Counted from the first letter of the stretch, positions 15,481 through 64,000 are shown. The stretch: 64,000 nucleotides of DNA from Azolla caroliniana (GCA_043228905.1 JBHGNT010000008.1:620001-684000), one strand, 5' to 3'. Program-made: numbers and translations. The notes: generated by a model not told the origin, from the sequence alone.

Positions 15481-15627
15481 CTTTTGCTCATGTTTTTTTT
15501 TTCTTATACGGAAGCCTCCTTCTCCTTATTTAACCATAAAAAAGAAAACTTGCTTCTAGGATTTTAAAACGAAAAAGGATTGTGAGATAATCGGATTCTT
15601 CCCTTACTGTCGAGATCGTTTCACCAT

Positions 15628-16699: not shown

Positions 16700-19176
16700 C
16701 ATTGCGATTCGCCAAGTTAGAAAAGCTAAAAGATTAAGTCCATAAAAGCCTAAGGCAGGAAAAAAAGAAAACTTCATTTGTCGATGCATATAGTGTAATA
16801 ACACCAAACATTAGAAGATGTATTACACGAGTCATTCATCAAGTAGAGCTTGATAGAAATCTGATTTTTTGTGAAGATAGGAAGATTCATCTATCCGAAA
16901 CTCGACAACTCTCCGATTCAACTTTGGAAAAGGGGGGAATGACAAAGTTAATGGAGGATGCGGAATCCAAGAGGATACAAGCAATTTACTACTTGGCAAT
17001 GTATGGGTTGAAGGTAGGTGGTCCTCTATTGGTAATGGCTTCTAGAATAAGATGATTAATACTTTCAAGTATACGAAAAGTTTAACTAGACAACTTAAAG
17101 AAATTTGACAATGAAATTCAAACTAGCACTAGGTGAAAGGACCAAGTAAACACATTCACAATGTTCATAGAAGTTGTCGGGGTGAACAACACCCATGATT
17201 CAGTCAAGTAGAGGTGAAGCAAAAAAAACAAACGAAGTTGTTCCTTCTCAAAGACCAAAAACTAAAGAGCAAAAGAAGTGAAACAAAGAAAATGGCAAAA
17301 CAAAAAGCAACCTCGAGATTCAAGTTAGCCTCAGACATAGAGATTTTTGTCAACATAAGAAAGATTTAAGAAATTAGAATCCTTGGTGGTAAGGTAAGGC
17401 TTACTATAAAGGAACTATTACGAATCACGAAGAAAGAATTTCATGAGGTAATAATTGATGCAATCCACAGAAAGAATCAAGTGGTAGATGAAGCTAGAGG
17501 AGTTTAATGTAGTTAAAATCCAAGAAGATGTAGATGAGAACATTGCACTATTAGTTAGAGTAATGCGTTGAAATAAATATATCAATCAAGAAGAAGACAA
17601 GGACCACTACACTTGAGCTCATTGAGTTGGGGTGATGATAGAGACCCACATCAAGAGCCGAGAAGAAATGGAATCATGTATTGCATTGATGGGCCATGGT
17701 TTTGAAATTAATATATAATGTCATCTAACTTTTACAATCATGGGAAATGGCCTATTGAGAAAAACCATGGATGGGAAGTCACTGCGCCAATTGAAGCAAC
17801 TGAAGATCTTTGTGGAGCATGCATGAACATTAAAGTAACTTTAAGGGAGTGTTTCTGTATATCATATATTCTTTGTTCAAGAGAAGTCTTTCTATTCGGT
17901 CATTTTGGCTTCGGCATATATTTGCATTGCACTAAGAATGGAAATGAAGGTGATAGACAACAGATCAACGTTCGCACGGATCAAAAGCCAAGATGAAAGA
18001 AGGTTAGTTCAATTCCTTTCCATTCTATTGAAATATGGGCGTAATAAAGGCACCTTTATGACCATCTACTGTAGGAATCTGAAGACTTTCTCAAGGATTT
18101 TTAGATCGGACCTCTACAACAAGGGCTTGATACAACACGAATAACAATAAAATCCCCTAGGTTCAAAGAAAAACTAATGGAGATGTGTGCAACGTCAAAT
18201 AGTAGCGCTACTTTAGTGATTATTACTAACAATAAGGTAGTAAATGATTTCTAAAAGTAGAAGTATGGTTGAAGATTATGAGAGTGTCTTGTGAGGAGTT
18301 TAATGTTGCTATAGAGGGGTTGTGATGACCTAAACCACAAATCAAATTCCCAAGGTTTGAATAAGAAGTAAAGGAGATTTGTATGGAGCGTCAACTAGTG
18401 GCACTACCATAATGATTAATAATAATAATAATAATAATAATAATGTACATTAAATTATTTACAAAGTAGAAGTGCGGTTGAAGATGATGAGTGTCTTAAA
18501 TGTGTTCGAGAAGTTTAATGCTAAAGATAAACCTTGAAGGTCAAGATGAAGACCAATACGACCGAACTTGCACAACTAGTATGCAAGATTAGATAGGGTG
18601 GGTATCGTGATGCAATTGCTTTATGATATCAAAACAAAGCAGTACTGAAAATGCCATGTTTGAGGTTCAAACTCATAATCTCACATATCAGCCACCATCA
18701 AATAATTTTACAAATACATAAGTATCATGGCTATCATGCATCACATGTTAACACATGTGTCAAATGGCAATCTCACATCACATACATTGCATGTATCGCA
18801 TACATCACATGCACTCTTATTGGAACACTTATTTTTGGAAGGAATCAAAACATCTAGGCATCAAGAAAAATATGTTAATTTAATAATCAATAGATTAAGC
18901 TAGCTTATTAGGAAATGTTTTTCATCTCTCAAGATCAATGTCAAGGATTTGAGCCGAACTTTGGCAAAGATTCTTTAATTATTGTAACTTTGGTAAATAA
19001 AATATTGTATTCCCAATTTAATAACATATTTTTGTGATATACAATTTCAATTCAGTTTCTTTAATCCTATACTATCTCTATCTCTTGTATATGATCTTCT
19101 TTCTCCCTTTCCTTTATGAACTCTCCTTGTTCATAACCTTGCTGGTTCGATGCATCGATCATGAACTCTACGACTA
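16700..19176 (+). mobile_element. Old, degenerate Phygy-like Gypsy: gag-protease remnants plus 3' LTR (~18603-19176)
   Basis: Homologous to the gag/AP of 20846-21860 and 35961-36608 (FKLASDIE, KEFHEVIID, GKWPIEKNHGW). A PPT-like AGGGTGGG is followed by a decayed LTR sharing a CATG-rich block with the LTR at 31346-32495. Confidence 0.7.
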
Positions 19177-25725: not shown

Positions 25726-26423
25726 CATTGTGTTTGTATGCTCATCTCACCATTCAAACTTCATTCTTTTCTTTAACAATCCATATAATGGCTCGACGAC
25801 ATGAGCGTAGTGCGGAATCCAGATATGATAAAACGTGCATGCTCCAAGGAACCTTCGAACCTCCGTTTGGGTTATGCATTCTTCTTTCATGTGCTGGATC
25901 GCATTCACCTTGGAGGGCGAAGGCTTCCGCCCGTATGCTCCAAAAAAGTAACCTACCACCAAGATCTCTAGTTGCCTGAATGCGAATTTTTGTCCTGAAA
26001 ATGTCAAATTCGCATCTTCGAGCCTTTGGAGCACCTTCTCGAAATCTTTCATATGATCCACGACGAACTTTCTACACCCTTCTTTATCTTTCGATTCATC
26101 CTTCTCCTCATCCGAACATCCTTTTATCGGAATATCATCCAAGAATGGCATCGTGATGCCTGGGATGCAATCCTTCAAGACCTTGTTCATGGTATTCACT
26201 ATATGAGCCACCAAGTTTGTTGCACCTTGGGGTAAGGTACACATCCGCACAAGCCTGATCGGAGTCCTCATGGTTGTAATGTCACAACTGTCGATCACCA
26301 ACTAGAATTGATCGTATCCAGAGTAGAGATCACCAATGGAGTAGATGGATCGGCCCGCAAACGTTTCGGAAAATTCATCCACACTCGGACTGATTCCAGC
26401 ATTCCGAATTGTCACGTTGTTGA

Positions 26424-29400
26424 TTAGGGTTCATACGGTAATGTTGTTGTGCTACCGGTTTGACATCCTTATTGAGATGTATTTGGTGTTGGTACAACTG
26501 AGGATCCAACCCCTGCATGTCTTCATAGGACCAAGCGAATACGTCCCAAAATTCCTTTAATAAAGTGATCATCGCCGTCTTGTTGTCCGGTGACATTTCC
26601 TTAGCAATATGAACCGGTCTTGCGTCGTCCCCGATTCCTACGTTCACTTCCTCTAACTGGGATGCTTTCACGTGTTGGGATACCACCATCTCCCTCTCCA
26701 GAGCTTCCTGTGCTTGTCGTAATTCTCTGATAGCTTCCCTATTTGGTTCCTTGTCGGCAACATCCGATTGCGTTATATATGGTGACACTGCTTCTGCCAC
26801 ATCGATTTCAAATAGGGGTACAATTTTTGGGTTTTCTTCTAAGTATTGGGCGACCTCTTCGTCAGCAAACCTTCCGCATATAGCGGTGTTAGCTCCTTGC
26901 CGGTACTCGATCGAGGGTGGGTAGGTACCCTTACTTTAGCCTTTCCTCGCCGGAAGGTAATCATGTTTTTCCGCCAATTTTGTTTGATTTGCGCCGTTTT
27001 TAGCCATGGGCGACCCAACAATAGTGGGTAAGCCCCTTGCACATTGAGCTGGAGAACCACCACCGAAATGCAGAATGCGTGTCCTCCGATAGTTACGTCT
27101 AAATCCTATATCAAACCGGTAGGTCTTACCGAACTTGTATCCGCCATCCAGAGCCAAAATGGGCAAGGCTCCCATTCTTGGATTCCCAGGGTATTACAAG
27201 TCCGTAGACTAATAACGTTCACGCCGATCCTCCGTCCATAATCGTCCCTGGTTGTTCTCGTCCTTTGACGATGGCGGTGATTGCCGGACTTTTCGTGTCA
27301 ACCATTGCTGGCCCTTCTTCTGGATTTGAGAAGAACGCAAGAGCCTGCAACGGATTTGATGCGGTCATTCCTGATTTCAGCCCTTCCGTAAACTGGGGTA
27401 CTAGCTGTAATAACCGACCCAATGGTAGCGTAATTTGACATTCTTGTAACGCTTGCCATGTTGGGTTTTCCGGCTGAATCGTGTTGGTGGCCTCTTCCGG
27501 TTTCTCCTTTTGTTGTTCAAGCTCAGCCACGTTCCGCTCATTTGCCTTCATCACCCACTTGGTGGCTTGCTTTCGGATTGCCTCCTGTGTTTCCCACTTC
27601 GTTGTTTTGCCTTTTGCCCTGGTGCTGACTTGTTGTATGTCGGCGACTTCTACTACCACCATGTTTACTGCTGGTCGTTTCTCGTAACTTTTAACCATAC
27701 ATTGATTACTGTAATGTCCTTCTTGCCGGCAATAGTAGCAGTATGCTTTCCGAGTGTTGCTGGATTCGACGTTCGCTCTGGTACCCGGTTGAGGTCCTAT
27801 TGGTGGTCGGTTAGGTACTTGGCCTTGGTCTAGTTGGGTACTTGGTGTGCCCTTGTCCGACTGCCATTGGTGGTCCTCCTTTCTAGCTTTCCATTTTTTG
27901 TTGAAGAGTTTATTTGTTCCCGTAACCTTGTCGGGGCCGGTTTTCATAATTGCCTTGATCCTCCCTCTGTTGGTTGTAACCGGGGGAGTGATCTCGGTTG
28001 TATTGCTCATATCGATCACCATTGTAATCCCTATAGCTATCCTACCGGTCTCGGTTGTGAGCGTCTTTTCTGTCGCTGTGCCGGACATCTTGCGTCGACC
28101 GGTCACACTCATCTCACTGCCAATGTTCTTCTTCCTCCTCCCATTTACTCCGGGGTTCGATTTGCCTTACCGGTGCCACTTGTCGGTTCAACAAGTTATA
28201 TTTGCATCGGTCCATTGTGTGCGCCCTGGAATGGCATAACATGCACTGTGTCCGCATGGTACATTCTATTGCCGAGTGCCCAACATTGAGACAAGTCATA
28301 CATTGTATAGCTTGCCGAAAACGTAGGTCGTCTTCTGTCGGTAATGTATGCTCGAGTGCCCCCATTGTTAGCCATGAGCTCGTTTTCTCCATCTCCTTGA
28401 CCCGATCTATGACTTGGTCGATCATGTTGGTGTGGAAATCAATCACTGCGCACACCATATGCAAGGGTTCCCGGAGTGCTGCTAGGAATATTGCTTTAGC
28501 CCCTGCTTCCAGTGGTGCCTGATTTAGCTGCCTGTGCATTCGCTAGAACCGGATTACGAATTGGTGAATGGTTTCCGTAGGTTCCTGCCGTATGCTTTAG
28601 AATAGGCCGACCATCTCCCATTGATCCACCTCCTTGTTGAAGAACTGTAAAAATTTGGTTTTTAAGTCCTCAAACGTCGTGATGGTGCCGGGAGGGTGTG
28701 CCAAGCGCCATTGCGCAGTTGGTCCTTCCAAGGTCATGCCGAACTCTACAATCTTCGAGCGTTCTGCTTCGGCGGCGGTCAAGCGTTGCAACACATTGTT
28801 TGCTTCCCATGTTTGTAGAAATGCATAGACATGAGATTCCGCGTCCGGATCATCCCGGTACTTGGGATATTGGAACAACATGTCGTCGTATGGTGTCGGA
28901 ACACGGGTTGGTGGTGTTGGAGGTCTTTCCTCCCCTTCTTTCGGTGTCAGAGGTTTTTCCTCCTCTTGTCGGTCTGGGGCTTCCAATTCCGTTAACTCTG
29001 GTTCTGGTGTCGGCAAGGTATCCGAATGCTCGTCCTCTAGTCCGTTTGGGGTGTTGTGGCTGCTACGATAATTCGAATGGGCGCTACATTCACCGTCCGA
29101 ATCCGATTCGAAGGCCGAGAACGGTTCCGAAGCGCCTTCCCCTGTTGCTAATGCTTGCCAAATGGATTCTGTGTCCAGGAGACTGCTCAAGCTGCTTCCT
29201 TCGTCCGGGTGGGGAGTGTGCTGCACGCGGAGTGACTCCGCGACCACTCGCTGGATTACTTTGGAAAATGATCGATTCGCACAGATCTCTTCTACCGCCT
29301 GGTGGAAAGCCTCTCGTTTCTGCAATCATTCGGCAAGTCTTCTTGCTCGCTCCATAACCGGGTTGTTCATTGGTCTAGTCATCCATTCCCGCCGTTGTTC

Positions 29401-29900
29401 GCTGCGTTTGTGTACGAATCGTGGTGGCCAAAAACTGTGTTATCGCTAGGGGCCGGACAATGGCCTAACACAGGGTGTCCCTTTGAGACACTTCACCAAA
29501 GGGGTGTTGCGGTGGTATAAACTTAGACAGAACTATTAATGGAACCCTAATTGGTTACTAATCGGCAAGATCATTAGACACAATACACACGTAAGATGAA
29601 TTACACTTAGCACAGAACAGTAATTAACTTGATTAAGATACAGAACAACAACACTCTATTAATTATCCGCTAATGATTACAATCTAACCAGGCCCTTTTA
29701 TAGGTCTCCGGCTATAGGAACAAGCAGGTGCCAACCGGCAACCGGCTACGAACCGGTCCGGATCCAAATCGGCATACCAATTCCGGGTCCGTATGTTCGC
29801 TTCTCAAAATCATAATAATTCTATATTATAGATAATCCGCTCCTGGTTATTAATTATCCCCCTTTTCCCATTCTAGACTTCCCTTGCCGGCCAGCTAACA
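26424..29900 (-). mobile_element. 5' part of a Tat/OTA-like Gypsy (LTR 29438-29900, gag, protease, start of RT), 3' deleted
   Basis: LTR has TGTTA...TAACA ends. Gag has three CCHC knuckles; protease IMDGGS; LLGRPWL; DVFAWSYEDMQGLDP typical of Tat-type RT starts. Confidence 0.8.
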
Positions 29901-32495
29901 GAAGCAATTGCCTAAGTCTCTAGAACAAGTGTGGAGAAAATTTGGCCGTTGTCATTGGCTTTATTATCTTGGTCCTTCTCTTCCTTTTCGCCACCATCCG
30001 TCTCTTGGTTCTCACATTGGTTTCCAGACACAACTGCCCAAGTCTCTAGATGAAGTGTTAGGAAAGTCTCCACATGACCATCCGCCATTGACTCGTTAAT
30101 AACCATCTCCGACTCGATGTCGTTTTTCGTGGCTATCTCTTCAATCTCATGGGCCTTGTACCCATTGACCTTCTTGATCGAGCAAGCTTCAATTATCCTT
30201 CTCTCTTCGTCGCATGTATTCGTTTCAACCTTCGGCTCCTCGCCGACACCTTCCATCACTTGGGTTTCACGTTGGTTCTTGGACGCAACTGCACAAGTCT
30301 CTAGATCATGTGTGGAGAAAATCCGGCCATGGTTGTTGTCGATGCTTGTTATCTTGTTCATAGTCACCTCCTCGATGTCGTCTCTAACAGCTAGATCCTC
30401 AATTACACTAGCCTCGCACTCTTTATCTCTATTGATGCAAGCTTCGATTAGGCTTGCTCCTTCATCATCCGATGTTTCAAACATGATACGCGTTCTGAAA
30501 CATTCATCCTTCCTCGAAGTGGCCTTCTCCATCCTTGAGTCATCATCAATCTTCTTTTCATGTAGGTTTCTTTGTTTAGGTGGCTCGACTTCTTTAGGTG
30601 GTCTTGATGTTTCTACGCTTGGCTTTACCAAGTCAATGTCATCAAGCCATTGATGATGCATGTGGATCTTGTTGCATGTTCGCTTCACCGCAACCCAGTC
30701 CGCCACAAGCCTGTTCGCTTGGGTATCATCTTCGAGGAGAGTACCCAGTTCTCGTCTATCCTTTATATCCATAGTCTTCAGGAAGTACAAAGTTTTGTCC
30801 TCCTCAAGTAGCACTTGGTTTGTGGCGGGGAGACGACGAAACATTTGGTCGAATTCATCATACACCCTCGAGGTGCTCATCTTCTCATTTTTCTTCTCTA
30901 TCCACCTCATCAAGGTATGTCAAGTCATCCTCGACAAATCTTTCGTCATGAACTCCGCTAATATTGATCTTTCAAACTCTGACCACGTTGTCTTGCCTTC
31001 TTGAAGCTCGATGACACGTCTTTGGATGTTTTTGGCAACAACTCTCTTGAAGCTTGCGATTTGACGTGCTTCGGACACGTCCCTTTGATTCATCTCCCTT
31101 TTATATGCATCAAGGAACTTTGTAATGTTCCTTCCGTCAAATTGACCCTCAAGCTCCACGACACAGTCGACGGCCTTCTCCACGCTCGCATCGTTGTCTC
31201 GAGATCTCATTATTTGTTAGACGATCAACATCATCCTTTCGAACTCTCCTGCTTGGTTCCTTGAGGATACCATCTCCAAATTTCGGTTGATCCTCGACTT
31301 GATCCTTCCTACCGCCTCTTTCACGTCGGGTTCACCACTTAATTATGTCGTGAACATTCGTCACTATGCGCGGATCGTGAGGCGGAACCACCGGGGTTCT
31401 GGACCGGAAGGACTCGAATTTTGCACTAGCTTTGGCGAGAAAGGAATTAAGATAGATTCAAAGAGAGAGAGATTGAGATAAGATAGAACGATTGCCTTTA
31501 GATTGAGAGAGATTAAGATTAAACTCTTGACTTTAGATTTCAAGAACAAGATTGATACACCAATTGGATAACGAGTTTCTTACTTTTAATTTCTTGATTA
31601 ATACATTGCTCCCCTTTGATCTTTTTCATCCACCCTTTTATAGATGCTCCCATGCATATGATACATGTGAGGATACAAGCAATGCATACAATGCATGGAA
31701 TGCATGTGATGCATGTTTGCCATTTGGCGCTCATGCATCACATGTCACTCAATCAAGCTCTAATATGAGAATTTACATGTAAAGCTATAATGATAAAAAT
31801 ATAATCCCTAAAGAAATGATTTGGCTTAATGGTAAGCCTATTGCTTCCTATCTTGGAGGTGCAAAGTTTGAGTCTTGCTTACATCTTTTTTTTTTATACA
31901 CAAAATACTATTAGGCTTTTGGACCAAATATCTTTAAGACACCATGCACCGCGATCAACCGACCCGATCGATCCGTCCGATTTGCATCCGTTTGGTTCGG
32001 TTCGGTCCGTATCCCGAGTCCTTGCCGATCACCGGTCGATCGTTGCTTGCCGGTTGCGCCACGGTGCTGCCGTCGGTTTTGGTTGGTCAAAACCTTTACA
32101 AGTAGCTAGGCCACACCCACTCATCATCCAATTAGCTTAGTTCGAGTCACCTTGAACTCTCTATGCTCCACACATTGACACAAAGATAATAGCTTTTGCT
32201 CTGCCTTATATATGGTGAGATCCTTATTTGTCCTATATATGTGGGATATCTCACAGTTTTATCTTTCTCTTTTCCTTTGCAAAGTTTCTACCCACATAAC
32301 TTGAGACTTAGATGTCCGTTTCTTATGTAGTAAAGTGCATTCGAAAGCTCTTTAAGACCTCCATCTTTTTGTACTAAGATATTAAACCTATTTAAAATAA
32401 TATTTTCACTATTATTGTTTTATATGATTCATACTCGATACTCGATTTCGTATGTTTATGCGATTTTCACACCATTGCCGAAAATCTTCACGACA
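29901..32495 (-). mobile_element. 5' part of a Phygy-like Gypsy derivative: 5' LTR 31346-32495, tRNA-Trp PBS 31320-31337, gag with acidic repeats
   Basis: TGTCGTG...TTCACGACA ends; PBS TGGTGAACCCGACGTGAA; gag motif GQFDGRNITKFLDAY. Confidence 0.85.
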
Positions 32496-34076: not shown

Positions 34077-36598
34077 AAGAAAACCGGCCATAGGCGGAAT
34101 CGGACAAAAAGGCGCATGTGTCGGGAGTTCGCTGTAGGTGTCGGGAGTTTGCTACCTCTGCTTCGTGGACAACCCGTGTGCTTCTAGCAGAGTCTCTCTC
34201 CTCCCCCTTTCCCTTTTCGTTTCTTCGAGTCGTGTGGATGTCGTCGGTGTGCGTGAGTAGGACCCCGTGTCGGGTCCATTACCAGGTTGCCGGTTGTAAG
34301 CTATTGACTATAGTAATCGGATTCCTGTTCTCCTTGCTCTTAATCTCTCTTTGTGTACTTGTCTCTCTCTCTCTCTCTCTCTCCTTGGTCCAAGACCCCC
34401 TGTGGTCCCGCCTCTTTCTACACGCACACGCGTAACAACGCGACATATTTGGTGAACCCGACGTGAAACGGGCTACAAAGGAGTTGAAAGATGAGGGGAT
34501 CGGAGCTAGCAGAGGCAAGGGCGGTAGTCGTCGACCGGCTGGTAAGCACTCGTGAGGGGACGGGTACCCTCGACAGAGCCATCAAATCGATCGTCGGCAC
34601 TATAGGCCGGTTCGGAGGGAAAGACGCCACAAGTTTTTTGGAGGCTTACCAGGCCGAAATGATCATGAGGGATATCCCGGTAGACAGGCGGATGACCGGA
34701 TTCCCTCGGGTGGTGACGCCGAGCATCCACGCAGAGGTGCTCGAGATGCTGGCCGGATGCCAGACTTGGAAGGAGTTCGAGCTGCAGCTCCTCGAGAAGT
34801 ACGGGTTTGACGACTCGCTTCGGCTGTCGAGGCGGGACTTCATGGCGTGGGTGGAAAGCCCCAGAAACGGAGGAAAATGTCAGTGCTCTTCCAGGAGTTC
34901 GAAAAACGGTTCACGCGGCTCTCGACGCTGGACTGGACAGTGCTCGAAACGAATCGAGTACTACTGTTTGTCAAGTCGGTGGACGCGCTCAACAGGGAAA
35001 AGGTGGGTCCCCTATTGGAAACAGACGAAGGGCTCACGGCAGACTGGGCCGTGGTAAAACGGGTTTGCAGCCGTTTCGACAAACGGCGCGATTGGAGCGA
35101 CGGAAGCTCGTCGGGGTCAGGGCCGGTCCCGGGGAGGAGGCTCGAGGAGCCGGTATCGGTGCCAGCCAGTAGGAAGGAAGAGACCCGAATCTGGCCAGAG
35201 TCGGGGTCGGCATCGAATGACGTGGTCAGAGGCCCATCAGGAGGAGCGGCTCTAGAGGAGCTGACACAGATGGTGCGCGACCTGCAGGTTGCACAAGCTC
35301 GGAGGGACAGCGGCGAACAACCTCGCAACTGGAGGCCGCCGGCTAGGCAGTGGTGCATGTGGTGTGACGCGATTGGTCACATTTGGAAGGATTGCGCGGA
35401 TTTCGCCGACGCGCTCAGGACCAACGTGTTGTACCTTTGGAACGGGCGGGTGCACATGAGCGAGACCCGGAGAGCCCTAGAACTGAATACGGTGCGCGAC
35501 GGAAGAGGCCGCGACACGGCACGTTGAAGCCGTTAACTACTCAGTGTCAGCGGGAATTCGGGTCGAGGGTGATGAGACCTGGAAGGCGAAGGACTCCGGA
35601 TTCTGGCCGCTAGTGCTAGAAGGCCTCTCCGGAGTTCGGCTGAAGAAGGAAGCGGCGGACCGTGCAGAATAGCGGGTCTAGGAGGTCACCGGTTGGGACG
35701 ATCCGGTCGAAGAGAAAACAGGCTTTGTAGAAGCCGTTTGCCAGAACTACGAGGTTCTGGTGGAAGACAAACGGGCAGGAAAGGCCGGAGGGGTCGGTCC
35801 CCCGCAGAGGTATGAGACCCGGTTCGGACCGAAACTGACCGGTGCCGGCAACCCAGGTGCGCCGGATGGAAAGAAGCGGGCGGGGTTTCAGTTGAGTACC
35901 GAAATCGAAAGGACCACAGACCTGTGAAAGGTCCTGGAGGAACGTATCCTCGACAACAAAGTGGAGCTGTCGCTGAGGGAATTGCTCGGGATTGCCAAGA
36001 AGGAGTTCCACGACTCCATGGTAGACTTGGTGAAGAGGAAATGGTTGTCGACGGAGCCGGAACCGGAGAAGCCGGTGGAGGTGCGGACCGCGCACTTGGA
36101 AGACGTGACCCTAGAAGATGAGTTGGCGGAAAGCCACTACACGAAGCCGCATTGGACCAGGGCAACTACGGAAACCCCTGTACGGATCGGCAACGTTCCG
36201 GAACCGGTGGTGGCCTTGGTAGACCATGGATCCGAAATCAACATGATGTCCATGGATCTCTACAAGAGGGGTAAATGGCTGATCAACACCAAGCATGGCT
36301 GGAAAATACGGGCAGTGACGCGCGCCACGGAAGAACTACATGGAGCCTGTCCGAACGTACGGGTGAAAATCGGCGATGTCGAGATCGACCAACACTTCTT
36401 CGTGCAGGAGACGTCCTCGCATCCGGTTATACTAGGAGAGCCATGCATCACGGCGGCACGGATGGAGACCAAGGTGTTGGCCAACGGTTCGGCCTATGCA
36501 AGAGTCAAGAGCCAGGACGGGTGCCACTCGGTCCAGTTCCTGACGGTGCGACTGAACCATGAGCGTAACTGCGAGGCCCTCGGCGGCGAAACCCGAGG

Positions 36599-36642
36599 GG
36601 ATTTTTAGAGAGGGCTATCAAGGCGTGGGGCCGCGATAGTCC
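36599..36642 (+). promoter_or_regulatory. Candidate -1 programmed ribosomal frameshift signal (G_GAT_TTT plus stem-loop)
   Basis: The heptamer immediately precedes the gag-AP stop. The -1 frame is open from here into RT. GGGCTATC (36612) pairs with GATAGTCC (36635). Confidence 0.75.
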
Positions 36643-38487
36643 GGACACCCGGGAAAAACCCCACAAATGTACAGTACGGAAGAAGACCTACACCATAGGT
36701 AGGAAATTTTGGTTCTCCGACAACGGAGGTTGTACTATGGCCGGCGTCAACGGCCGGGAAAGGAAGCAAGCGGAGGAGCGGCTCAGGGGATGCGGAGTCC
36801 TCTTCCCCGACGAAGACATCAGCGGCGCCGTGGAGGTGGTCTCTTTTGACGACACCTTGGGCGAGTTGCAAAAGGTGATCGGTGAAGACCTTAGAGAAGA
36901 CCGGACCGTTCCGGTAGGTTCGATGGGAATGTACGAAGTCATCGCGGACTTCGGGGAAAGGGTCGGGTCGGATCGGACGGCCCGCGTGGATACAAAGTAC
37001 AAGACTGTGGACCGGAAGGTGAGGCCAGTCGCGGCACCCGTGCCGGAGGGCAGCGAGGAGCGGATAAAAGGGGTCGCGTCGGACCCGAGTTTACAGAATC
37101 CGGTTGGCATAGGGCACCAGTTCACCGACATAACACTATGGGAGCTCAAGGTTGGTGGGGGTGGCTTTCTACTGTCGGCGGAGGAGAACAGGTTTCGGAG
37201 AATGCTTGGAGGGCATAGGCAAGCCTTCGCGTTCTCGCCGGAGGATAACGGGTGCGTGGACCCGACGATCGTCGAACCGATGGTGATCTTCACGGTACCT
37301 CATGTACCATGGAATCTCAAACCGATTCCGGTGCCGAGAGCTCACATCGCGAAGTTGATGGAGCTTCTAAAGCAAAAGGTGGAGATGGGCATCCTCGAAC
37401 CGTTGAGTGCCCCGTATTCGAATTGGTGGTCTACGGTGCTGAAGAAGAATGGCACGTTGCGCTTCATTCAGGACCTGCAACCGGTCAACAAGGTGACCAT
37501 CCGTAACGTAGGAATCGGACCGACCATAGACGAGTTCGCGGAGGCCTTCGCTGGAAGGTCGATCTATTTGGTCGGTGACTTATACTCGGGGTACGACCAA
37601 TTCCAGCTAGCCGTGGAAAGCAGGGATATCACGACGATGCGAACTCCTCTCGGCCTAGTGCGGATGTGTACCCTACCACAAGGCGGGACCAATTCGGTGG
37701 CGCATATGGTGAACGCAATGAACAAGGTGCTAAGGGATTGCATCCCGGACATCACCATGCCATTCTTGGACGACATCCCGATAAAGGGGTGTCCGGTGAA
37801 TGACACGGACGAAACTGTCGGGCCAGACGGATGCCGGAGGTTCGTCATGAACCACATCAACGACTGCGAGAAGGTGTTGCAGAGGCTCGAAGACGCACGA
37901 CTCACCTTCTCCGGAGAAAAATCGGCCTTCCGTCAGTCGTAGATCTTGGTGGTCGGACACCTGTGCAGGCACTACAGTAGGAAACCGTCTCCGGCAAAGG
38001 TAGAGGCCATCTCAGCGATGAGGGACGATTGTGGGTCGATCACGGAGGTCCGCAGATTCTTGGGAGCATGCGCGTTCTACCACATCTGGGTTCCGCACTA
38101 CGCGCATGTTGCGGAGCCTCTCTACGGGCTATTGAAGAAAGGGCATGGGTTCGAGTGGAAGAAAGAGCACACGGAGTCGGTCCGGAGACTAAAGGAGGCG
38201 CTTACGGTAGCGTCGGTCCTCCGCAAAGCGGTTTACGGCAAGGGTGTCCCCATTTGCGTGACGGTGGACACAAGCCTGACTGGGATCGGGTGTGTAATCA
38301 GTCAGGAGGACAAGGACGACGTACGATTCCCGATCCGGTTTGGGGCGAAGGTATTGAGCGAGCGGCAGCGAGGATACGCCCAAGTTAAGCGCGAGCATGG
38401 GGTATCGTTTCGGCAGTCAAGGCCGACAAGGACTATCTGATCCGGACGGAGGTGATCATCGAGACGGACTGCCTGCCGATACTCGGC

Positions 38488-38759
38488 ATGGTTTCCAGAT
38501 GCACGACGTCGGACCTAGCAATGCTCCGGTGGATAGCGTACATTAAGTCCTTGAACCCGGAGATACGACACATCTCCGGAAAGGACAACACCATGGCCGA
38601 CATGCTTTCGAGAGCGAGGTTCAATGGTTTCCGGATGCCCGACGTCAGACCTAGCAATGCTCCGGTGGATAGCGTACATTAAGTCCCTGAACCCGGAGAT
38701 ACGGCACATCTCCGGAAAGGACAACGCCATGGCCGACATGCTTTCGAGAGTGAGGTTCA
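38488..38759 (+). repeat. 136-bp tandem duplication in RNase H (frameshifting)
   Basis: ATGGTTTCC.GATGC.CGACGTC...GAGGTTCA occurs at 38488 and 38624; peptide SDLAMLRWIAYIKSLNPEIRHISGKDN appears twice. Confidence 0.92.
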
Positions 38760-40839
38760 ACGACGAAGACGGCAAGGTTTCGGATGACGAAGAAGTCCGC
38801 GAGGACTTCTTCGAGTCGGCTAACGTAACGACGAGGAAAAAGGACACTCCGGTGCTTAACGAATTTGACGAAAGCAGATACGACGGGGAGTGGCTCCTAA
38901 TCGGGAGGTTCCTACGGACGATGACGCCAGACGCAGCATGGACGAGAGAAGAGGTGAGCCGGGTAGGGAAGAAGGCGTACCGATTCTTCCTGCGGGACGA
39001 GTGCATATGGAGGCACCCAAAGAAAAGAAACGGCGTGCCGCTCCGAGTAGTGGCAAAGAAAGAAGAACAGGAGGAACTACTGGCGGCATTTCACGAGAGT
39101 TCCTGGGCCGGACACCGCGGAACGTGGGCCACGTTCGAGAAGTTGAAGGAGAAGTACTGGTGGTCGGGGCTGTACCAGGACGTGCATCAGTTCGTAACGA
39201 CTTGTGAAAGTTGTCAGATGCACTCCGTAGTTCGACATCGGGACGAGCTACACCCGACTTACCCGCCTACGGTCCATTTCAAGTGGATGGTGGACTTGGT
39301 GACAATGCCGATGGGAGTAGGACAGATACGATACCTGGTGCTTGCGCGGGAAGACTTAACGAACCAGGTGGAAGGCCGTGCACTGCAAAACAAGACAACC
39401 GCGGCGGTATGCTGGTTCCTGATCGAAGAGGTAGTGTGTCGGTACGGGTGCGTTGGGAGGATCGTGGCAGACCGGGGAGAGCTGGATGCGCGAGAAGTTG
39501 AGGAGTTGTTCGACCGGCTGGGCGTCAAACTCTCCCTCACTACAGCGTACAATCTGGAGGCGAACGGGAAGGTAGAACGTGGGCACGGGCCGATCGTAAA
39601 GGCGTTGGTGCGTGCATGCAGAGGGTAGGTCAAAAATTGTCTGTGGCTCCTTCCTTACGCACTATGGGCAGACCGAACTACGCACAGTTCGGTAACATGG
39701 TTTATGCCGGTAGAGCTGATGTACGGACAGAAGCCGATCATGCCAGTGGAACAAACGGTTTCTTCATGGGCGTCGGTAGATTGGAAGGACGAGATGAGCC
39801 GGGAGGAGTTGTTGGCGGCGCGGATTCGGCAACTCGAGTGGAGGCCGGAGGACATGAAAAGGGCGAAGGAAAAGTTGTGGGCGGCAAGGGAGCGGAAAAA
39901 GACCCAGTTCAACCGGACACACCGGTTGCGACCAAAGAAGATCAAGGAAGGCGACTGGGTCTTGGTGTACAACAACAGCCTTGACAATCAGCACAAGGCG
40001 GTGCGAAAGTTTGTTAGGACGTGGTTCGGGCCCTACACGGTGACGAGCGCGAACGACAATGACACGTACCACCTCGCGGAACTCGACGGGACACGGTTAG
40101 CAGTGCCAGTTGCCGGGAAGTGGATCAAAGCGTTCAAGAAGCGGTTCGAAGACAAGCCGGAGCCTGCGAGCAGGAGCGACAACGACGATCAGTTTGGGCC
40201 CGGCAGAGAATCGGAGAGCGACAAGTGAAGCCGGTATGTCGTCTCTGGCACATGCCGGTGGATGCACAGTTTGGTGGGGGTGGATGTCGTGAAGAAAACC
40301 TGCCATTGGCGGAATCAGACAAAAAGGTGCATGAACCGGCTCTTACACGGATGGACGCGTGAATTGATATTTTGATATTGATTAATAAATGGATCGGCTG
40401 ATGTAAATACTAAGTAGTACACATTTATTAGGGGATTGTGCGTATCTCTGTCAGAGGGGACAGGGAATAAAGCGATTTGACTAGGGAAAAAGGGCACCCC
40501 CTTTTGGGAACTATTTAAGGAGAGGAGAGAAGGAAGAGGAAATATCGCGTTGGCGAGGACGAAGTGCTGCTGCAGAACCGAGTGTCGAGCTCTCTCTCCT
40601 TCGATCGTCGTTCTCTGCGGTGTCAGGAGTTCGCTGCCTCTGCTTCGTGGACAGCCCGTGTGCTTCCAGCTGAGTCTCTCTCCTCCCCCTTTCCCCTTTC
40701 GTTTCTTCGAGTCGTGTGGCTGCCATCGGTGTGCGTGAGTAGGACCCCATGTCGGGTCCATTACCGGGTTGCCGGTTGTAAGCTATTGACTATAGTAATA
40801 AGATTCCTGTTTTCCTTGCTCTTAATCTCTCTCTGTGTA

Positions 40840-40877
<38 letters not shown>

Positions 40878-41091
40878 TGGTCCGAGACCCAAGTGGTACC
40901 GCCTCTTTCTACACGCACGCACGTAACAACACGACAACGTTCATATATCTTTCTGTTTTTCTTTCTTCTTAGTCTATCTCTCTCTCTCGTGATTCTCTCA
41001 CAGTCTCTCTCCCTTCCCTCTACATTTCGTGTAATTCTGATAGTACTCTCTCTCTCTCACTCAATCACTCACTCTCTCTTTCTCTCCCCTT

Positions 41092-43179: not shown

Positions 43180-46100
43180 CTGCTCACTTAGCTCCCACTA
43201 AGTGGAAAACCAGAAAAGTAAGTAACAACAGTAACAAACTGTTTGCCCTAAGTCATATTTATACACATATGACTTTCAGGCTATTTACAAATATAGCCTC
43301 AAGAGCCCTTGGCAAACATATTCACAAATATGTCCCCGCATCCGGATCTCTCTCCGGGTACATTCGTCATCCTGCTCCGTAACCGGGGTCTTCATCATCC
43401 GGCTCCGTAGCCGGGGTCTTCATCATCCGGCTCCGTAGCCGGGGTCTTCATCATCCGGCTCCGTAGCCGGGGTCTTCATCCGGCTTCATGCCGGGTACTC
43501 TTCATCCTCCGGTTCTGTAACCGCAACCGGGCTTGCCGTCATTCATCTCCGGACATCCCATCCGGAGGGACCGTCATCCCAACAAACTCCCCCTTCACTT
43601 CGGCATGGGATGTCTCTCCAATCCGATCCTCTTCCGGCATGCTTCCAGCTTGTCGGGTGTGAGCACCTTGGTCAGCATATCCGACCCGTTCTCGTCCGTG
43701 TGGATCTTCGTCAGCACGAACTCCTTGTCTTCTATCCTTTCCCGGATCCAGTGGTATCTACGCTGAATGTGTTTCGTCCGGGAATGGTAGGCCGCGTTCT
43801 TCGCAAGGTGGATGGCACTCTGACTATCGCAGTAGAGCCGGTACTCCTCCTACCGGATACCGAGCTCTCTAATGAAGTCCTTCATCCATATTATTTCCTT
43901 GCTGGCTTCAACAGCCGCCATGTACTCCGCCTCCGTGGTTGACAACGCAACCGTCTTCTGCAACCTCGACTGCCACGAAACGGCTCCCCCTGCATATGTC
44001 ATTACATACCCAGATGTAGACCGGCTGGTATCCGCATCAGCCGACATGTCCGAATCGGTAAATCCATCGAGTTCGGGCTTACCGGAGCCGAATCGGAGGC
44101 ACATGTTCGAAGTGCCCTTTAAGTATCGGAGTATCCATTTGACCGCGTTCCAGTGCTCCTTGCCGGGATTGCTCATGTACCGGCTCACCACTCCGACTGC
44201 ATATCCTATGTCCGGTCTTGTACACACCATTGCGTACATCAAGCTTCCGACGGCAGAGGCATATGGTACTTTCATCATGTCCTCCTTCTCAGCCTTTGTC
44301 TTGGGACTTTGCTTGCCGGATAACTTGCAGTTTGTCGGGAGGGTTGATCCGACCGGTCTTGCTTCCGACATGTTGAACCGTTGAAGCACCTTTGTCACGT
44401 ACTTCTCCTGTGACAGCCACAACTGCTTCTTCCTCCGGTCCCGGATGATGTGCATCCCTAGTATTTGCCTCGCCGGACCCAGGTCCTTCATTGAGAAGGT
44501 TCGGTGAAGAGCCTTCTTCAGCATCCGTATCTTGACCTGGTCCCGTCCGACGATCAACATGTCGTCCACGTACAGGAGGAGTATTAGAAAGTCTCCTCCT
44601 TCGAACTTCTTTACAAATACGCAGTGATCAGCCTGCGTTTTGTGGTACCCTTCGTCGGTCATGAAAGAGTCGAACTTCCGGTACCATTGTCGGGGAGCCT
44701 GCTTCAGTCCGTAAAGGCTCTTCTTCAACCGGCATACCAGGTGCTCCTCCCCTTTCTTCTCGAATCCTTCCGGTTGCTGCATGTAGATCTCTTCTTCGAG
44801 GTCACCGTGAAGGAATGCCGTCTTCACGTCCATCTGTTCTACCTCGAGGTCCATGCTTGCCACTATGCTCAGCACCGTCCGGATGGAGGTCATCTTCACT
44901 ACCGGGGCAAATATCTCATCGAAGTCGACGCCCTTCTTCTGCTGGAACCCCTTCACCACGATCGTGGCTTTGTATCTCGGGGGGTTGCCGACATCTCCCG
45001 GTTTCAGCTTGAACACCCACTTGTTTCGAAGTGCCCGTTTTCCTTTCGGCAACTCCACAAGTTCATATGTGTGGTTCTCATGCAGGGAATCCATCTCGTC
45101 CTGCATGGCACTCAACCACTTGCGGCTCTGGGTGTCATGCTTTGCTTCTTCAAAGCTCTCCGGCTCCCCCTCGTCGGTCAGCAACACGTGCTCTGGATCC
45201 GGAAATCTCCGGGGGGCCCTTCTCTCTCTTAGAGGATATCTCCGTTCCAGAGCTTCGATAACCGGCTCCTCCGTTTCCTCTTCATCCGAATCCATTTCGG
45301 GATCGGGGCCGGTTCCGGTATCTGTTTCATCTTCCTCGGCCGGTTCTGTTTCTTCACCGTCTTCGGCCGGATCCTCGAGTGCTAACCGGTCCCTTGCCGG
45401 TCGGGACTGCTCCTCGTAGAGTTGATTCTCACCGGTCGACTTGGAGCTCTTCATCTTCTTCCCCGACTCCCAGTCGGCGAGTGTCTTGTCCTCCATGAAG
45501 ATGATATCTCGACTCCTGAATATCTTCTTGTCGACCGGGTCCCATACTCGGTAGCCGAACTCGTCGTCGCCGTAACCGAGGAATATGCATGGCCGGGTCT
45601 TTGGATCTAACTTTCCTCTCCGGTCCTTTGCCACATGCACGTATGCGAGACACCCGAACACCTTCAGATGCCGGTAGGACACTTCCTTACCGGTCCACAC
45701 TCTCTGTGGCGTGTCTCCATCTAGGGGTACTGAGGGTGATCTATTTATCACATATGTCGCCGTCGACATTGCCTCAACCCAAAATCCCTTGGGTAATTTC
45801 GCATGTGCTAACATACTCCGGACCCTCTCCATTATGGTCCGGTTCATCCTCTCGGCCAGCCCGTTCAGTTCCGGCGTCTTCGGCACAGTAAACTCGAGCC
45901 GAATTCCCATCGAACGGCAATACTCCTCAAATTGCCCTCGGTATTCTCCTCCATTATCTGCTCGTATCGCTTTCAGCTTCTTGCCGGATTCCCTTTCCAC
46001 TCTCGCGTGGAGTTCTTTGAAGACGGACAATACTTGGTCCTTTGTCTTCAACGGTGCCGTCCACAGCTTCTGGCTATGGTCATCTATGAATGTTACGAAG

Positions 46101-47964
46101 TACTGGGCTCCGCCATGTGACTTCGTTTCTACCTGGCACACATCAGTGTGTACCAACTCCAATGGTACACTACGTCTCATCGGTGGTCTTGAGCGGAAGG
46201 AGGTCCGGTTTTGCTTACCGGCCAGACAGTCGGTACACTTCCCCAGGTGTACGTGCTTTACCGGTATCAGGTTGTCTTCGGCAAGCCTCTTCATCCCCTT
46301 CTCGCTCATGTGGCACAGTCTCTTGTGCCACAGCTCACCGTCAGTGTCAGCTGCCACGTTCAGCTCCTCCGGACATAGCCGGGAATTCATCAGGTACAGT
46401 GTGTTAATCTTCCGGGCCCGAGCCACTATCAGGCTCCCTTTGCTAAACTTCATGACACCGTTCCGGATGCTACCCGTGTAGCCTTCATCGTCTAGCCTCC
46501 CGACCGAAATCAGGTTCAATCGAACCTCCTGAACGTGTCGTACATCCTTCAGGAGCATCTTGCATCCGGTTGATGTCATCAGCCACACGTCTCCTATGCC
46601 GGCAATCCGGCATGTACCTTCATTTCCCATCCGGACACAGCCGTGCTCACCGGCTGTGTAGGATGAGAAGTATTTCTTCTCCGGGGTCAGGTGGAACGAC
46701 GCTCCGGAATCGACCACCCAGGTCATCTCTTCACCGGCAAGGTTCAGCTCCCTTTCTTCGGTAATGAGCATTATCTCTTCTTCACTTGCCGCGAGTGCCG
46801 TCGTTCCTTTCCGGTCCTGCCCTCGCCGATCCGGACCTCTCCGGTCCGTGGCTCCCCGGTATGCACCGTTTCGCTCCGGTGACTTCTTCGAATCGGTACC
46901 GTCGGTTCCGTTGTCTTTCCGGAAATGCCGACAGTTCTTCTGGAAGTGCCCCGGCTTCCCACAGTAGAAGCATGTAGGTCTTCCCCTCGACTGCGACCGT
47001 GTTCCCGACTTCTCCCGTCTTTGCGGACTCCGGTTCCGTTGTCTTCCCCGTTCCGATTCGGTAAGCAGCGCCTTCGAGTCGGAGGCCGGTTCTTTATCTC
47101 TCCGACGCGCTTCTTCATTTAGAATACTTGTCTTTACCGTTAGTAAAGACAAGTTCTCTTCCTTACAGGAGGTGCTGAGAGTAACTACCAAGTTCTCCCA
47201 GCTCTCCGGAAGGGTACACATCAGCATGATGGCTTGCATTGCGTCATCCAACGGGAACTTGATCGCCGCAAGCTGGTTCACGAATCCCATGAACGTGCTG
47301 ACGTGTTCGACCATACTCTCGCCGTCCCGGTACTTAAGATTCACTATCTTCCTCATCAGGGAGGTCCGGGTCAGAGCATTCTTCCTCTCATACAGTCCGG
47401 ACAGCTTCTGCCACATCTCATAGGCGTTCGTATCGTTCGCCACATGTTGCAGGACACTTACATCGACATATTGCCGGATCGTCGCTACGGCTTTCCGGTT
47501 CAGGAGCTTCCACTCCGACTCTATTACCCCCTTGGGTATCTCGGCATTGTCGATCGGTTCGTACAGGTCTCGGACGATGAGAAGGTCTTCCATCTTTATC
47601 TTCCAGTCGGCGGAGGTTCTGTGAGTTCAACACCATCATGCCCGAAGGCCCACTACCGCCGCCTTCCATTTTCTGTGTTACCGTCGCTCTGATACCACTT
47701 TGTTGAAGACAGTGCTCGGCCACAACCGAGGAATAGGATCAACTCACAGAAAACGGGAAATACCAAAATGCACGAAGACAATAGAGAGAAGAGTACACAG
47801 GATATTTTACGTGGAAAACCCTAAATGGGAAAAACCACGGGAGTCCTCAAACTCCAACTATCACTATGAACAGAGATGTACAATGGTGAAGCTACAAGGC
47901 AACAACCTTGAGCTCACTGTCTTCGCCACAGGCGGCGGTAATACACAGAGGCAACGACCTCTTC

Positions 47965-61341: not shown

Positions 61342-64000
61342 TGTCGTGAAGAAAACCGCCCACAAGGGGAATCGGAGGAACAAGGCGTGGGGGAAACGGC
61401 TCTACACGCACACGCGCGCCAAGAAGTACCTAAGGACGAAGTAGGTACATACGAGGATCCTAGGTGGGTAGATTCGGTTGGTATGCAGTTAATGCCAAAC
61501 GGCCTCTTGACGGGATATAAAAGGAAGAGGAAGAATAGAAGTGGGGTATCTCGCGCGGAGAGGACGAAGTGCTGCCGAACCGATTTGGAAGCTCCTCTCT
61601 CACTCCTGCTTTCTCTGTTTTCTGCTCCATCGCGTACCTGTGCAGGTTTCGAGGAGGCTTGCGCTGTTCCGTGGAACGCCCCGAGTGCGTCCTGCAGCAC
61701 CTCCGACCTGTTTTCCCCTTCCCGTGCGTCGCGACATACAGGGGTCGGCATCTGTTCGCCGCCCTGTTCGTTTTCGTTAGTATCTATTTCGTGCCCTACC
61801 GTGGGTTGTAACGCTTTAGCCTGTTATTTTCTTGCATTCATAAGTACATATCTTTCGTGGTTGCGTCCATCTGCGTCGGCGTTTATTTGCGATCTCTGTT
61901 TGTTGGGCCGTGTCCCTGTGCAATCTTCGGTTCTGTGTAATCGGGTCTCTCTCCTCTTCTTCTCTCTCTCTCTCTTGCTCTTCGGTCCAAGACCCCCGTG
62001 GTCCCTCCTCCTTTCTGCACGCAAGGGCGTAGCAACCCTCGACATCTTGGTGAACCCGACGTGAAAGAGGCGGCAGAAGAGCAGGAAATGAGGGGGTCGG
62101 ATCTCGCAGAGGCCATGGCTTCGGCCGTGGATCGGATTGTAAACGCGCGCGAGAGCACCGGTGCCCTCGACAGAGCTATTGAGGCGGTCGTCGGCACGAT
62201 CGGCCGGTTCGATGGGAAGGATGCCACGAAGTATTTGGCGTCCTACGGTGCAGAGATGCTGATGCGGGACATTCCGGAAGAAAGGCGTCTTGCCGGATTT
62301 CCCCGAGTGGCGATGCCGAGCATCCATACGGAGGTGCTCGAGGTGCGGACGGAGAGCCGTACCTGGGAGGAGTTCGAAGGTCGGCTCCTAGAGAAATACG
62401 GGCTGGACGACGCGCTCCGGCTTTCGAAGCGAAGGTTCATGGAATGGGTGGAGTCCCCGGGGAAGGGAAGAAACGCGTCGGCGCTCCTCCGGGAGTTCGA
62501 GGAAAACTTTGCGCGCCTTTCGGCGCTTGACCGAACCATCCTGGACACGAGCCGGGTCTTGCTGTTTGTCAAGTCGGTCGACGAGCGGGATCGGGAGCAA
62601 GTGGGCTTCTTGCTGGAAACCGAAGACGGGCTCACTACCGACTGGGCGGCTGTCAGGAAGGTCTGTGGCCGTTTCGACAAACGGCGAGAATGGGCGGATA
62701 ACGGGGCGACCGGGTCGGGCTCGGTCGCAGGAAGGAAGCTCGAACCAGCGCCACAGGTGCGCAAGGAAGAGACCCGGGAGTGGTTGGAAACCGGTTCGGC
62801 TTCGACCGGCGTAGTCAGAGGCTCAACCGGAGGAGCGGCGCTGGAGGAATTGACGAAGGCGATAAAGGACCTCCAAATCGCGCAGGCCCGAAGGGAAGGA
62901 GGCGAACCGGCTCGTGACCGACGGCCGGCGGCAGGAAACAGGTGCATGTGGTGCGATGAAGTCGGCCACATTCGGAAGGACTGCGGCGACTTCGCGGAGG
63001 CGCTGAGGAACAGGGTGGTGTACCTGTGGGAAGGACGGGTGCATGCCAGCGACACCCGAAGGGCCCTGAGCCGAAACGACGGAAAAGGCTGTATGAAAAG
63101 GGTGATGGAAGAGGCGGCGGCCCGACACGCGGAAACCGTCCACTACTCGGCGTCGGCCGGCATTCGAGTCGGGGGCGGCGAGGCCCGGAGGGAAAGCAAA
63201 GCCGGATTCTGGCCAACGGTGCTGGAAGGCCTTGCCGATACGAGGATGAAGAGGGAGGAATCGGACCGTGCGGAGAAACGGGTACGGGAGATGACCGGGT
63301 GGAGCGACCCGGTCGAGGAAAGGACGGGCTTCGTGGAAGCTGCTTGCCAGAACTACGAGGCTCTGGTAGAAGAGAAGCGGGTGGGGAGACCCGGGACGAC
63401 CGGGCCCTCACAACGATACGAGACCCGGTCCGGGCCACGACGGGACGAAGCCGGCGGGGCCGGTACGCAAGATAAACCCCAGAAGGGCGGGTACCGTCTG
63501 GGGACGGAGATAGAAAGGACCACGGACTTACGAAAGGTCCTGGAGGAACGGATCCTCGACAGCAAGGTGGAGCTGTCGTTACGAGAGGTGCTGGGAATCG
63601 CCAAGAAGGAGTTCCACGACTCCATCGTGGACTTGGTGAAACGGAAGAGGCTGTCGACGGAGACAGAACCGGAAAGACCGGTGGAAGTGCGGACGACGCA
63701 CCTAGACGACATGGCGCTGGGAGACGAGTGGGCGGAAAGCCACTATTCGAGACCACACTGGGCCCGAGCGACCACGGAAACCCCGGTGAAGGTCGGCGAT
63801 GTCCAGGAACCGGTGATAGCTTTGGTGGACCACGGATCGGAGATCAATTTGATGTCCATGGACTTCTATAAGAAGGGCAAATGGCCGATCAACACCAAGC
63901 ACGGGTGGAAAATAAGGGCAGCAACGCGCGCCACCGAGGAACTGCACGGGGCCTGTCCGAATGTGTGGGTCAAGATTGGCGACGTCGAGATTGACCAACA
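61342..64000 (+). mobile_element. Young Phygy-like Gypsy: 5' LTR 61342-62044, Trp PBS 62048-62065, gag-protease ORF running off the window
   Basis: TGTCGTGAAG...CTCGACA LTR; PBS TGGTGAACCCGACGTGAA. Confidence 0.92.
62088..64000 (+). CDS. Gag-protease polyprotein, apparently uninterrupted (absent from the ORF track because it has no stop in the window)
   Basis: MRGSDLAEAM...GRFDGKDATKYL...CMWCDEVGHIRKDC...ALVDHGSEINLMS...KIGDVEIDQ, read by eye without stops. Confidence 0.85.
   Translation, partial: MRGSDLAEAMASAVDRIVNARESTGALDRAIEAVVGTIGRFDGKDATKYLASYGAEMLMRDIPEERRLAGFPRVAMPSIHTEVLEVRTESRTWEEFEGRLLEKYGLDDALRLSKRRFMEWVESPGKGRNASALLREFEENFARLSALDRTILDTSRVLLFVKSVDERDREQVGFLLETEDGLTTDWAAVRKVCGRFDKRREWADNGATGSGSVAGRKLEPAPQVRKEETREWLETGSASTGVVRGSTGGAALEELTKAIKDLQIAQARREGGEPARDRRPAAGNRCMWCDEVGHIRKDCGDFAEALRNRVVYLWEGRVHASDTRRALSRNDGKGCMKRVMEEAAARHAETVHYSASAGIRVGGGEARRESKAGFWPTVLEGLADTRMKREESDRAEKRVREMTGWSDPVEERTGFVEAACQNYEALVEEKRVGRPGTTGPSQRYETRSGPRRDEAGGAGTQDKPQKGGYRLGTEIERTTDLRKVLEERILDSKVELSLREVLGIAKKEFHDSIVDLVKRKRLSTETEPERPVEVRTTHLDDMALGDEWAESHYSRPHWARATTETPVKVGDVQEPVIALVDHGSEINLMSMDFYKKGKWPINTKHGWKIRAATRATEELHGACPNVWVKIGDVEIDQ

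Follow-up and report, generated by a model that had tools for sequence, protein, structure and literature searches.

A putative pseudoknot-stimulated frameshift signal behind the protease of Phygy-like Ty3/gypsy retrotransposons

Our analysis of a 64,000-nucleotide stretch of the Azolla caroliniana genome (GCA_043228905.1, JBHGNT010000008.1:620001-684000; hereafter, the window) and of related sequences revealed a family of Ty3/gypsy LTR retrotransposons with a two-frame layout, in which Gag and protease are encoded in one frame and reverse transcriptase (RT), RNase H (RH) and integrase (IN) in another, with a slippery heptamer, a fixed spacer, a covarying stem and an open linker at the junction. 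These Phygy-type elements very probably join Gag and protease to RT-RNase H-integrase by pseudoknot-stimulated frameshifting after the protease. The preliminary description of the window had proposed that Gag-AP (AP, aspartic protease) ends at the stop codon and that RT-RH-IN is reached by programmed -1 frameshifting (-1 PRF), and this proposal was strengthened by the conserved register, the heptamer that appears to be conserved at the RNA level, the covariation of the stem and the open linker.

The element at about 34.1-40.9 kb of the window has the LTRs, primer binding site (PBS), polypurine tract (PPT) and domain order GAG-PR-RT-RH-IN of Ty3/gypsy elements (Table 1). This copy is decayed, its gag, RT, RNase H and integrase regions being interrupted by stops and frameshifts, and the case therefore rests on the family and not on the window copy itself. 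As described previously, the gag-AP ORF ends with G GAT TTT TAG (36599-36608), and the ORF at 36569-37942, which is in the -1 frame relative to the protease and holds RT (Pfam RVT_1), is open over the heptamer. PPR genes with E motifs are also present in the window; taken with the homologues in Physcomitrium, Riccia and Adiantum, they suggest a seed-free land plant as the host.

The young relative, the inspection of which beyond position 64000 had been recommended, has two identical 703-bp LTRs, a total size of 7136 bp and the target duplication CCGT on both sides. Its ORF1 (708 codons, unbroken) encodes Gag-DUF4100-protease with the C-terminus REDF-stop, and its pol is a -1 ORF of 1072 codons containing RT, RNase H and integrase, with a single in-frame stop late in integrase. 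The preliminary description had also pointed to GGATTTTTAG at 18095-18104 in a decayed distant relative. The position is indeed homologous (post-protease), but the exact 10-mer match is weak alone, because the 3' stem arm is lost, no pol was found within 1.5 kb and the nearest relatives mostly read GATTTC TAG; we dropped this copy as strong support.

Table 1. Positions of the retrotransposon features in the window
Feature	Position	Strand	Remark
Decayed distant relative, DUF4100/protease remnant	17319..18104	+	ends GGATTTT TAG, 18095-18104
5' LTR remnant	34127..34445	+	88% alike to 3' LTR; 5' part missing or diverged
Primer binding site	34450..34466	+	pairs with 3' end of tRNA-Trp(CCA) of this genome
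ORF1: Gag - zinc-knuckle-like motif - DUF4100 - aspartic protease	34491..36608	+	broken in window copy; single frame in young relative
Protease ORF (last part of ORF1)	35928-36608	+	ends G GAT TTT TAG
Protease active-site motif D-H-G, replacing D-T/S-G	36222..36230	+	
Pol, -1 frame: linker of about 125 codons, RT, RNase H, integrase	36569..40228	+	broken after 37942 in window copy
Slippery heptamer G_GAT_TTT	36599..36605	+	
ORF1 stop TAG (36606-36608) plus 3 nt = 6-nt spacer	36606..36611	+	
Stem 1: 36612-36619 with 36635-36642, 15-nt loop	36612..36642	+	
Predicted pseudoknot stem 2: 36625-36630 with 36659-36664	36625..36664	+	
3' LTR	40285..40936	+	polypurine tract before, ACGT (NCGN type) after
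Young relative	61342..64000	+	5' LTR 61342-62044; unbroken ORF1 from 62088; junction ~64205, just past window end

The domain before the slip site has a retropepsin fold, as its structural model (pLDDT 77) resembles Ddi1 and the proteases of retroviruses, with E 3e-7 for the best match. Pfam support for the protease was weak (E 0.016; Asp_protease_2 at E<=0.1 in nine of the 27 aligned members), and a PDB sequence search gave no match where the fold search did identify the protease. Our literature search found no papers on DUF4100.

According to the passages on this lineage in Neumann et al. (2019, PMC6317226), Phygy is a non-chromovirus Ty3/gypsy lineage described from P. patens only, and is characterized by a 4-bp NCGN target duplication, a tRNA-Trp PBS and a size of 7.7-10 kb; its ORF organisation is entered as ND in Additional file 5 of that study, where no lineage is given overlapping frames at PROT|RT. 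The NCGN-type duplications of the two elements checked (CCGT in the young element, ACGT after the 3' LTR of the window copy) and the PBS, which corresponds to the 3' terminus of the tRNA-Trp(CCA) genes in the genome, fit Phygy. The coding region likewise fills the element, and close protein homologues exist in Physcomitrium. General Pfam scans of the pol pieces gave no match to a chromodomain or an archaeal RNase H, and P. patens proteins, which carry no lineage label, group inside our protease tree. In contrast, the size of about 7.1 kb falls outside the Phygy range, which comes from one species, and homologues with the same protein ends extend to Riccia and Adiantum models. The element is shorter than Phygy, and we filed it as Phygy-like.

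The frame offset was scored in the best 30 copies of each of four subfamilies in the 523-Mb genome, and pol was in the -1 register in 23 of 30, 30 of 30, 23 of 29 and 16 of 27 scorable copies. Overall, 92 of 116 scorable copies were -1, 14 were +1 and 10 were in-frame, and four more had no pol hit. Off-register copies were confined to older subfamilies; the stop is mostly kept in them and their linker lengths are irregular, and we therefore read the in-frame and +1 copies as products of indel decay. Among the best 80 of 184 metagenome loci, most of them supplied by one assembly series, 61 were -1, four +1 and one in-frame, 13 had no pol and one ran off; the -1 register was thus found in 61 of the 66 with a pol hit. 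The odd-register loci L190, L197 and L228 were set aside as decayed copies with initially the usual -1 reading. Protein ends gave a similar picture: among the 120 homologues listed, 92 were ORF calls from contigs, of which 69 end with DF, GF or NF-stop (the residue pairs that would be specified by G_GAU_UUU, G_GGU_UUU and A_AAU_UUU, respectively), 19 end likewise with five more residues, two with VFx-stop and two otherwise, so that 90 of the 92 Gag-protease homologues terminate at or just behind such a site. Among the named gene models in the same 120, nine of 28 end likewise.

The two frames could in principle result from decay, from the mobilisation of non-autonomous copies by a master element in one frame, or from slippage of the polymerase at the run of T, which would give in-frame RNA. 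In favour of this, the copy in the window is decayed, and in P0233, a distant relative (45% in the protease), protease and RT share one frame. However, all 30 near-identical copies of the youngest subfamily, one of them with identical LTRs, are -1, none of the 25 scored families is in one frame, some families carry only three T (GGATTTC), and poly(A) reads show no indels at the junction; we regard these readings as scarcely credible. The two frames are the design of the family and not decay, and P0233 may mark a single-ORF sister lineage.

Of 262 loci, 148 had both an uninterrupted protease core and a heptamer-like end in frame; for the analysis of the junction, these were grouped into 31 families of less than 90% DNA identity, each represented by a real copy (AP DNA identity 58-90%, minimum 58%, median 66%). 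The heptamer, of the X_XXY_YYZ type of canonical -1 PRF signals and in frame ahead of the 0-frame stop, is G_GAU_UUU/C in 27 families, G_GGU_UUU in one and G_GUU_UUY in three, and because the families were filtered for a heptamer-like end, positions 2-7 are conserved partly by construction. The first G was unfiltered and is the wobble base of a variable codon, and it is invariant in all 29 families aligned as -1 types, in which the nine bases 5' of the heptamer vary freely. Furthermore, all 65 unfiltered metagenome rows with DF-stop read G_GAT_TTY; by comparison, GAC makes up 112 of the 285 Asp codons (39%) of the protease cores. From these comparisons, the heptamer appears to be conserved at the RNA level. 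G_GA heptamers and 5-9-nt spacers are documented for frameshift sites in passages of two reports (PMC5009743, PMC4937337), and the poor P-site re-pairing GAU -> GGA counts against the -1 model. The codon after the heptamer is TAA in 11 families, TAG in nine, TGA in four and a sense codon in seven, and the genomic subfamilies differ similarly (TAG, TGA or TAA). TTA replaces the stop in 8 of 30 copies of one subfamily, which suggests that the adjacent stop may be dispensable, and in certain families the stop is 15 nt further on with an unchanged knot.

The preliminary description had placed an 8-bp stem six nucleotides behind the heptamer, and GGGCTATC and GATAGTCC pair there as claimed. Single-sequence folding was uninformative as evidence (z -0.7 to -1.6; for the window hairpin, z -1.6 with 19 of 200 shuffles equally good); since the lone hairpin is no better than shuffles, its significance was drawn from covariation across families. 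The junctions of the 31 families align almost gap-free with a fixed start of the stem, 96.4% of the 248 cells of stem 1 are paired and both-sided changes occur at six of the eight pairs. The covariation score was matched by none of 500 shuffles, and slid partners pair in 24-44% (controls that ignore relatedness). Whereas the outer stem thus stood, the inner GCG/CGC hairpin of the same claim is missing in many families and was rejected in favour of a pseudoknot. The alignment of family copies that had been suggested as a check accordingly recovered the heptamer, the -1 register and the covarying stem, with a stop codon that varies.

In the window, GTGGGG in the loop pairs with CCCCAC downstream, and across families the partner of the 15-nt loop sits 9-16 nt behind the stem, with pairs such as GCGAGA/TCTCGC, GCAGGGA/TCCTTGC and TGAGGGT/ACCCTCA. 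Against dinucleotide shuffles, the best pseudoknot scored higher (p<=0.05) in 29 of the 31 families (26 at 0.01; the test failed in L189 and L216), with stem 2 partners optimised sequence by sequence and many of them G4/C4. Of 1912 other segments of these loci, 62 reached as high a score, and 45 of the 62 come from the one knotless family. The loop scored 16.6 with its own downstream segment versus 13.9 with swapped ones (0 of 20000 permutations, relatedness ignored). The predicted structure lies within the range of 5-9 nt behind the heptamer that -1 PRF signals require, and the modelling suggests that the stimulator is likely an H-type pseudoknot. The preliminary description overlooked both this pseudoknot and the other-frame subfamily treated below.

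The linker from the heptamer to the KYK motif is 356-392 nt long. In the 25 scored families (6 of the 31 were unscored), it contains no stop in the pol frame, compared with 190 and 279 in the remaining two. When related families were compared in 18 pairs, third-position changes were highest after the knot (180 vs 127/123; 238 vs 155/127), and this excess was absent within the knot (82 vs 78/89). The -1 frame is open and under selection, as in canonical -1 PRF signals. An Ogre-like intron spanning the stop might alternatively join protease to RT in some transcripts, as Ogre splices at the same boundary according to the relevant passages of PMC6317226, and gene models from Physcomitrium and Riccia bypass the junction. 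Our search for fused protease-RT proteins gave eight of 67 candidates, namely one fungal protein without RT, the follow-up of which found only three proteins, all of the same organism, and seven plant gene models; these seven, however, bypass the junction at different places, and a false-intron artefact of the same kind is on record for Tcn1 (bioRxiv 2022.12.06.519325). Moreover, from the heptamer onward the stretch that would be spliced out lacks stops and shows codon constraint in the pol frame, unlike an Ogre-type stop-rich spacer, and the families have no donor-like GT in common around the stop (the most widespread one occurs in 11 of 31 families and lies within the protease, 125 nt upstream). 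No splice joints were found in 377 and 657 placed poly(A) reads, which are shallow (junction depth 8-20 per run), from both strands and mostly less than 95% alike, from diverged copies; these reads show an unspliced junction, and are too shallow and diverged to prove expression or exclude rare splicing. We consider splicing very unlikely. Both an in-frame family and a spliced junction had been named in advance as grounds for abandoning the frameshift, and neither was found among the 25 scored families and in the shallow RNA data, respectively. The junction signal explains why gene models of such elements come cut or with odd introns.

Termination-reinitiation or internal initiation at a pol-frame ATG, which would give a separate Pol, is about as improbable as splicing overall, marginally more so in the -1 families considered by themselves and much less remote, if still unlikely, in the other-frame subfamily. 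A Met near the KYK motif is common, and both families with a presumed -2 shift have a pol-frame ATG 17-26 nt upstream of the stop. Against this, the first pol-frame ATG has no fixed place (codon 5 to 110), no conserved ATG was found in the linkers of the 25 scored families, and several families have V, L or F in place of the common Met, which sits behind a conserved stretch of the linker. Reinitiation also leaves unexplained the fixed heptamer and the families with the stop 15 nt further on and the same knot.

The exception is subfamily F, which is amplified and in which pol is in the +1/-2 register in 29 of the best 30 genomic copies, 26 of them with a stop-free linker; L205 and L215, the latter a sister family of subfamily F built in the same way, end with QVFD/QVFY-stop and have pol in the +1/-2 frame. 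The site in subfamily F is CAG GTT TTT (AG_GTT_TTT), the stem begins 5 nt behind it, the spacer being shorter by one base, and a ribosome that slipped by -1 in the genomic family would run straight into TGA. In a rough protease tree, the two +1/-2 families are joined in one clade (100/99) that is nested within -1 families; L229, with G_GTT_TTC and a 6-nt spacer, has the -1 register. We think that subfamily F probably reaches pol by a -2 slip as the likeliest route, because PRRSV has a -2 site with a -1 stop and because shorter spacers favour -2. A +1 slip on GUU_UUU would reach the same frame, the register by itself cannot separate the two, and a +1 slip from GUU to UUU has been proposed for closteroviruses. 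This route for subfamily F is improbable in our judgment, since a -2 slip gives perfect tRNA-Phe re-pairing, the -1 frame is stopped, seven of eight bases are the same as in the arterivirus -2/-1 site, and a spacer shortened by one base is what has been reported to favour -2. In passages of PMC4937337 and PMC5009743, PRRSV shifts by -2 at GG_GUU_UUU with a -1 stop, and a shorter spacer favours -2 there and on an HIV cassette. The preferred -2 reading is thus modelled on the arterivirus nsp2TF site in its AG_GUU_UUU heptamer, its target frame and its immediate -1 stop, with the likeness limited to the RG_GUU_UUU-type slip site: PRRSV lacks an RNA structure and depends on nsp1beta/PCBP acting at a C-rich motif some 10 nt downstream, whereas subfamily F has a predicted cis pseudoknot at 5 nt. 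The -2 cases named in the part of a review concerned are phage Mu, arteriviruses and Trichomonas virus 1.

The protease of RSV is at the end of Gag, and alpharetroviral gag-pol (RSV/ALV) likewise has a -1 shift with a pseudoknot after the protease. MMTV/HTLV pro-pol also has a post-protease -1 shift with a pseudoknot, but needs two shifts (passages of PMC12789967). Unlike these retroviruses, the present element is a plant LTR retrotransposon with no env seen, a G_GAU_UUU site and a D-H-G protease. Dianthoviruses and umbraviruses share the heptamer G_GAU_UUU, a nearby stop and a structure about 6 nt behind, as given in sections of PMC5009743, but theirs is a stem-loop with a bulge that pairs with an element at a distance of kilobases, whereas a local H-type pseudoknot is predicted here. 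Among retrotransposons, Tcn1/Selgy and Tf1/sushi have overlapping ORFs, with a -1 shift in Tf1/sushi relatives, but in the descriptions consulted the shift is placed between Gag and protease, and Skipper has its protease in ORF2 (a section of PMC5006619). Ogre and Retand (Tat clade) also break at protease/RT, by a spliced spacer and by a single in-frame stop, respectively. Only +1 cases were found for plant elements in a 2003 survey (Gao et al.), as summarized in a passage of a 2016 review; frameshifting is named only in general in the sections concerned of a 2025 plant-element review (PMC12786077) and is unmentioned in those of a P. patens expression paper (PMC7466625). We found no published description of the present signal in the openly accessible literature, and the signal is likely undescribed so far.

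In the mechanism that we propose, tRNA-Asp and tRNA-Phe would occupy G_GAU_UUU as the ribosome meets an H-type pseudoknot 6 nt ahead (stem 1 of 8 bp or more, a loop of 15 nt and stem 2 of 5-9 bp). A minority of ribosomes would slip by -1 and continue as ...D-F-L-E-R... into pol, and the remaining ones would terminate immediately at the ORF1 stop; because most ribosomes would stop at once, the protease would be made 1:1 with Gag and rationing would be confined to RT-RH-IN. In subfamily F, the same knot 5 nt behind AG_GUU_UUU would lead to pol in the +1/-2 frame via a -2 slip. If the atypical D-H-G protease is made 1:1 with Gag, how particles escape early processing becomes a testable question.

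On balance, we lean towards the view that a lineage in mosses, liverworts and ferns rations RT by a knot after the protease, and that one branch rewired this knot from -1 to -2 via GUU_UUU and a spacer one base shorter. The post-protease layout supplies what had been listed as 'not determined' for the organisation of Phygy, and frameshifting would be a third solution at the protease/RT boundary, beside splicing in Ogre and the stop in Retand. The families offer about 30 natural variants of one compact plant pseudoknot cassette, including a matched -1/-2 pair that differs by the slip site and one spacer base. The rewired knot, if real, would be an example from nature of a retroelement whose -2 shift is driven by RNA structure, and would put the mRNA-tension model to an evolutionary test.

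The ORF1 stop behind the slippery heptamer varies. In eight of the 30 scored copies of subfamily C (among L112-L122), TTA takes the place of the stop and the 0 frame closes 17 codons further on; this sub-lineage appears to have multiplied after the loss of the stop. In the families L204, L221, L230 and L232, ORF1 closes 15 nt past the heptamer, at a stop within stem 1, with the spacer and the knot unchanged; proteins from P. patens and Adiantum are of this type as well.

One distant relative, a protein of 1374 aa (P0233), has the protease and RT in a single frame and shares the linker motif of the Phygy-like family. The fungal protein P0326 (Phenoliferia) has DUF4100 and the protease and lacks RT, a hint that relatives in fungi may have a comparable break. 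The triad of the protease is D-H-G, not D-T/S-G, in 111 of the 120 listed homologues (36222-36230 in the window copy).

Other features of the window are summarized in the table; both of its PPR genes likely encode organellar RNA-editing factors.

Features of the window and tRNA-Trp(CCA) arrays in the same genome (G000; C, contig)
Feature	Position	Strand	Remark
PPR gene	window 7443-9230	(-)	E motifs
PPR gene	window 13456-15525	(-)	E motifs
Another broken Phygy-like element	window 20849-31240	(-)	fragmented
137-bp tandem duplication	window 38488-38760		inside RNase H of the window copy
Ty1/copia element	window 43850-47626	(-)	open frame of 1258 codons
Array L287	G000:C8:17801001-17811000		8 genes per 10 kb
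Array L288	G000:C16:5005001-5015000		7 genes per 10 kb
Array L289	G000:C5:10104001-10114000		7 genes per 10 kb

Tandem arrays of tRNA-Trp(CCA) genes, the source of the family's primer tRNA, stand at three genomic places, together with two copies that have a CTA anticodon. A whole-genome pattern search for these genes gave 63 matches. Speculatively, the arrays may be tied to the success of the Phygy-like element.
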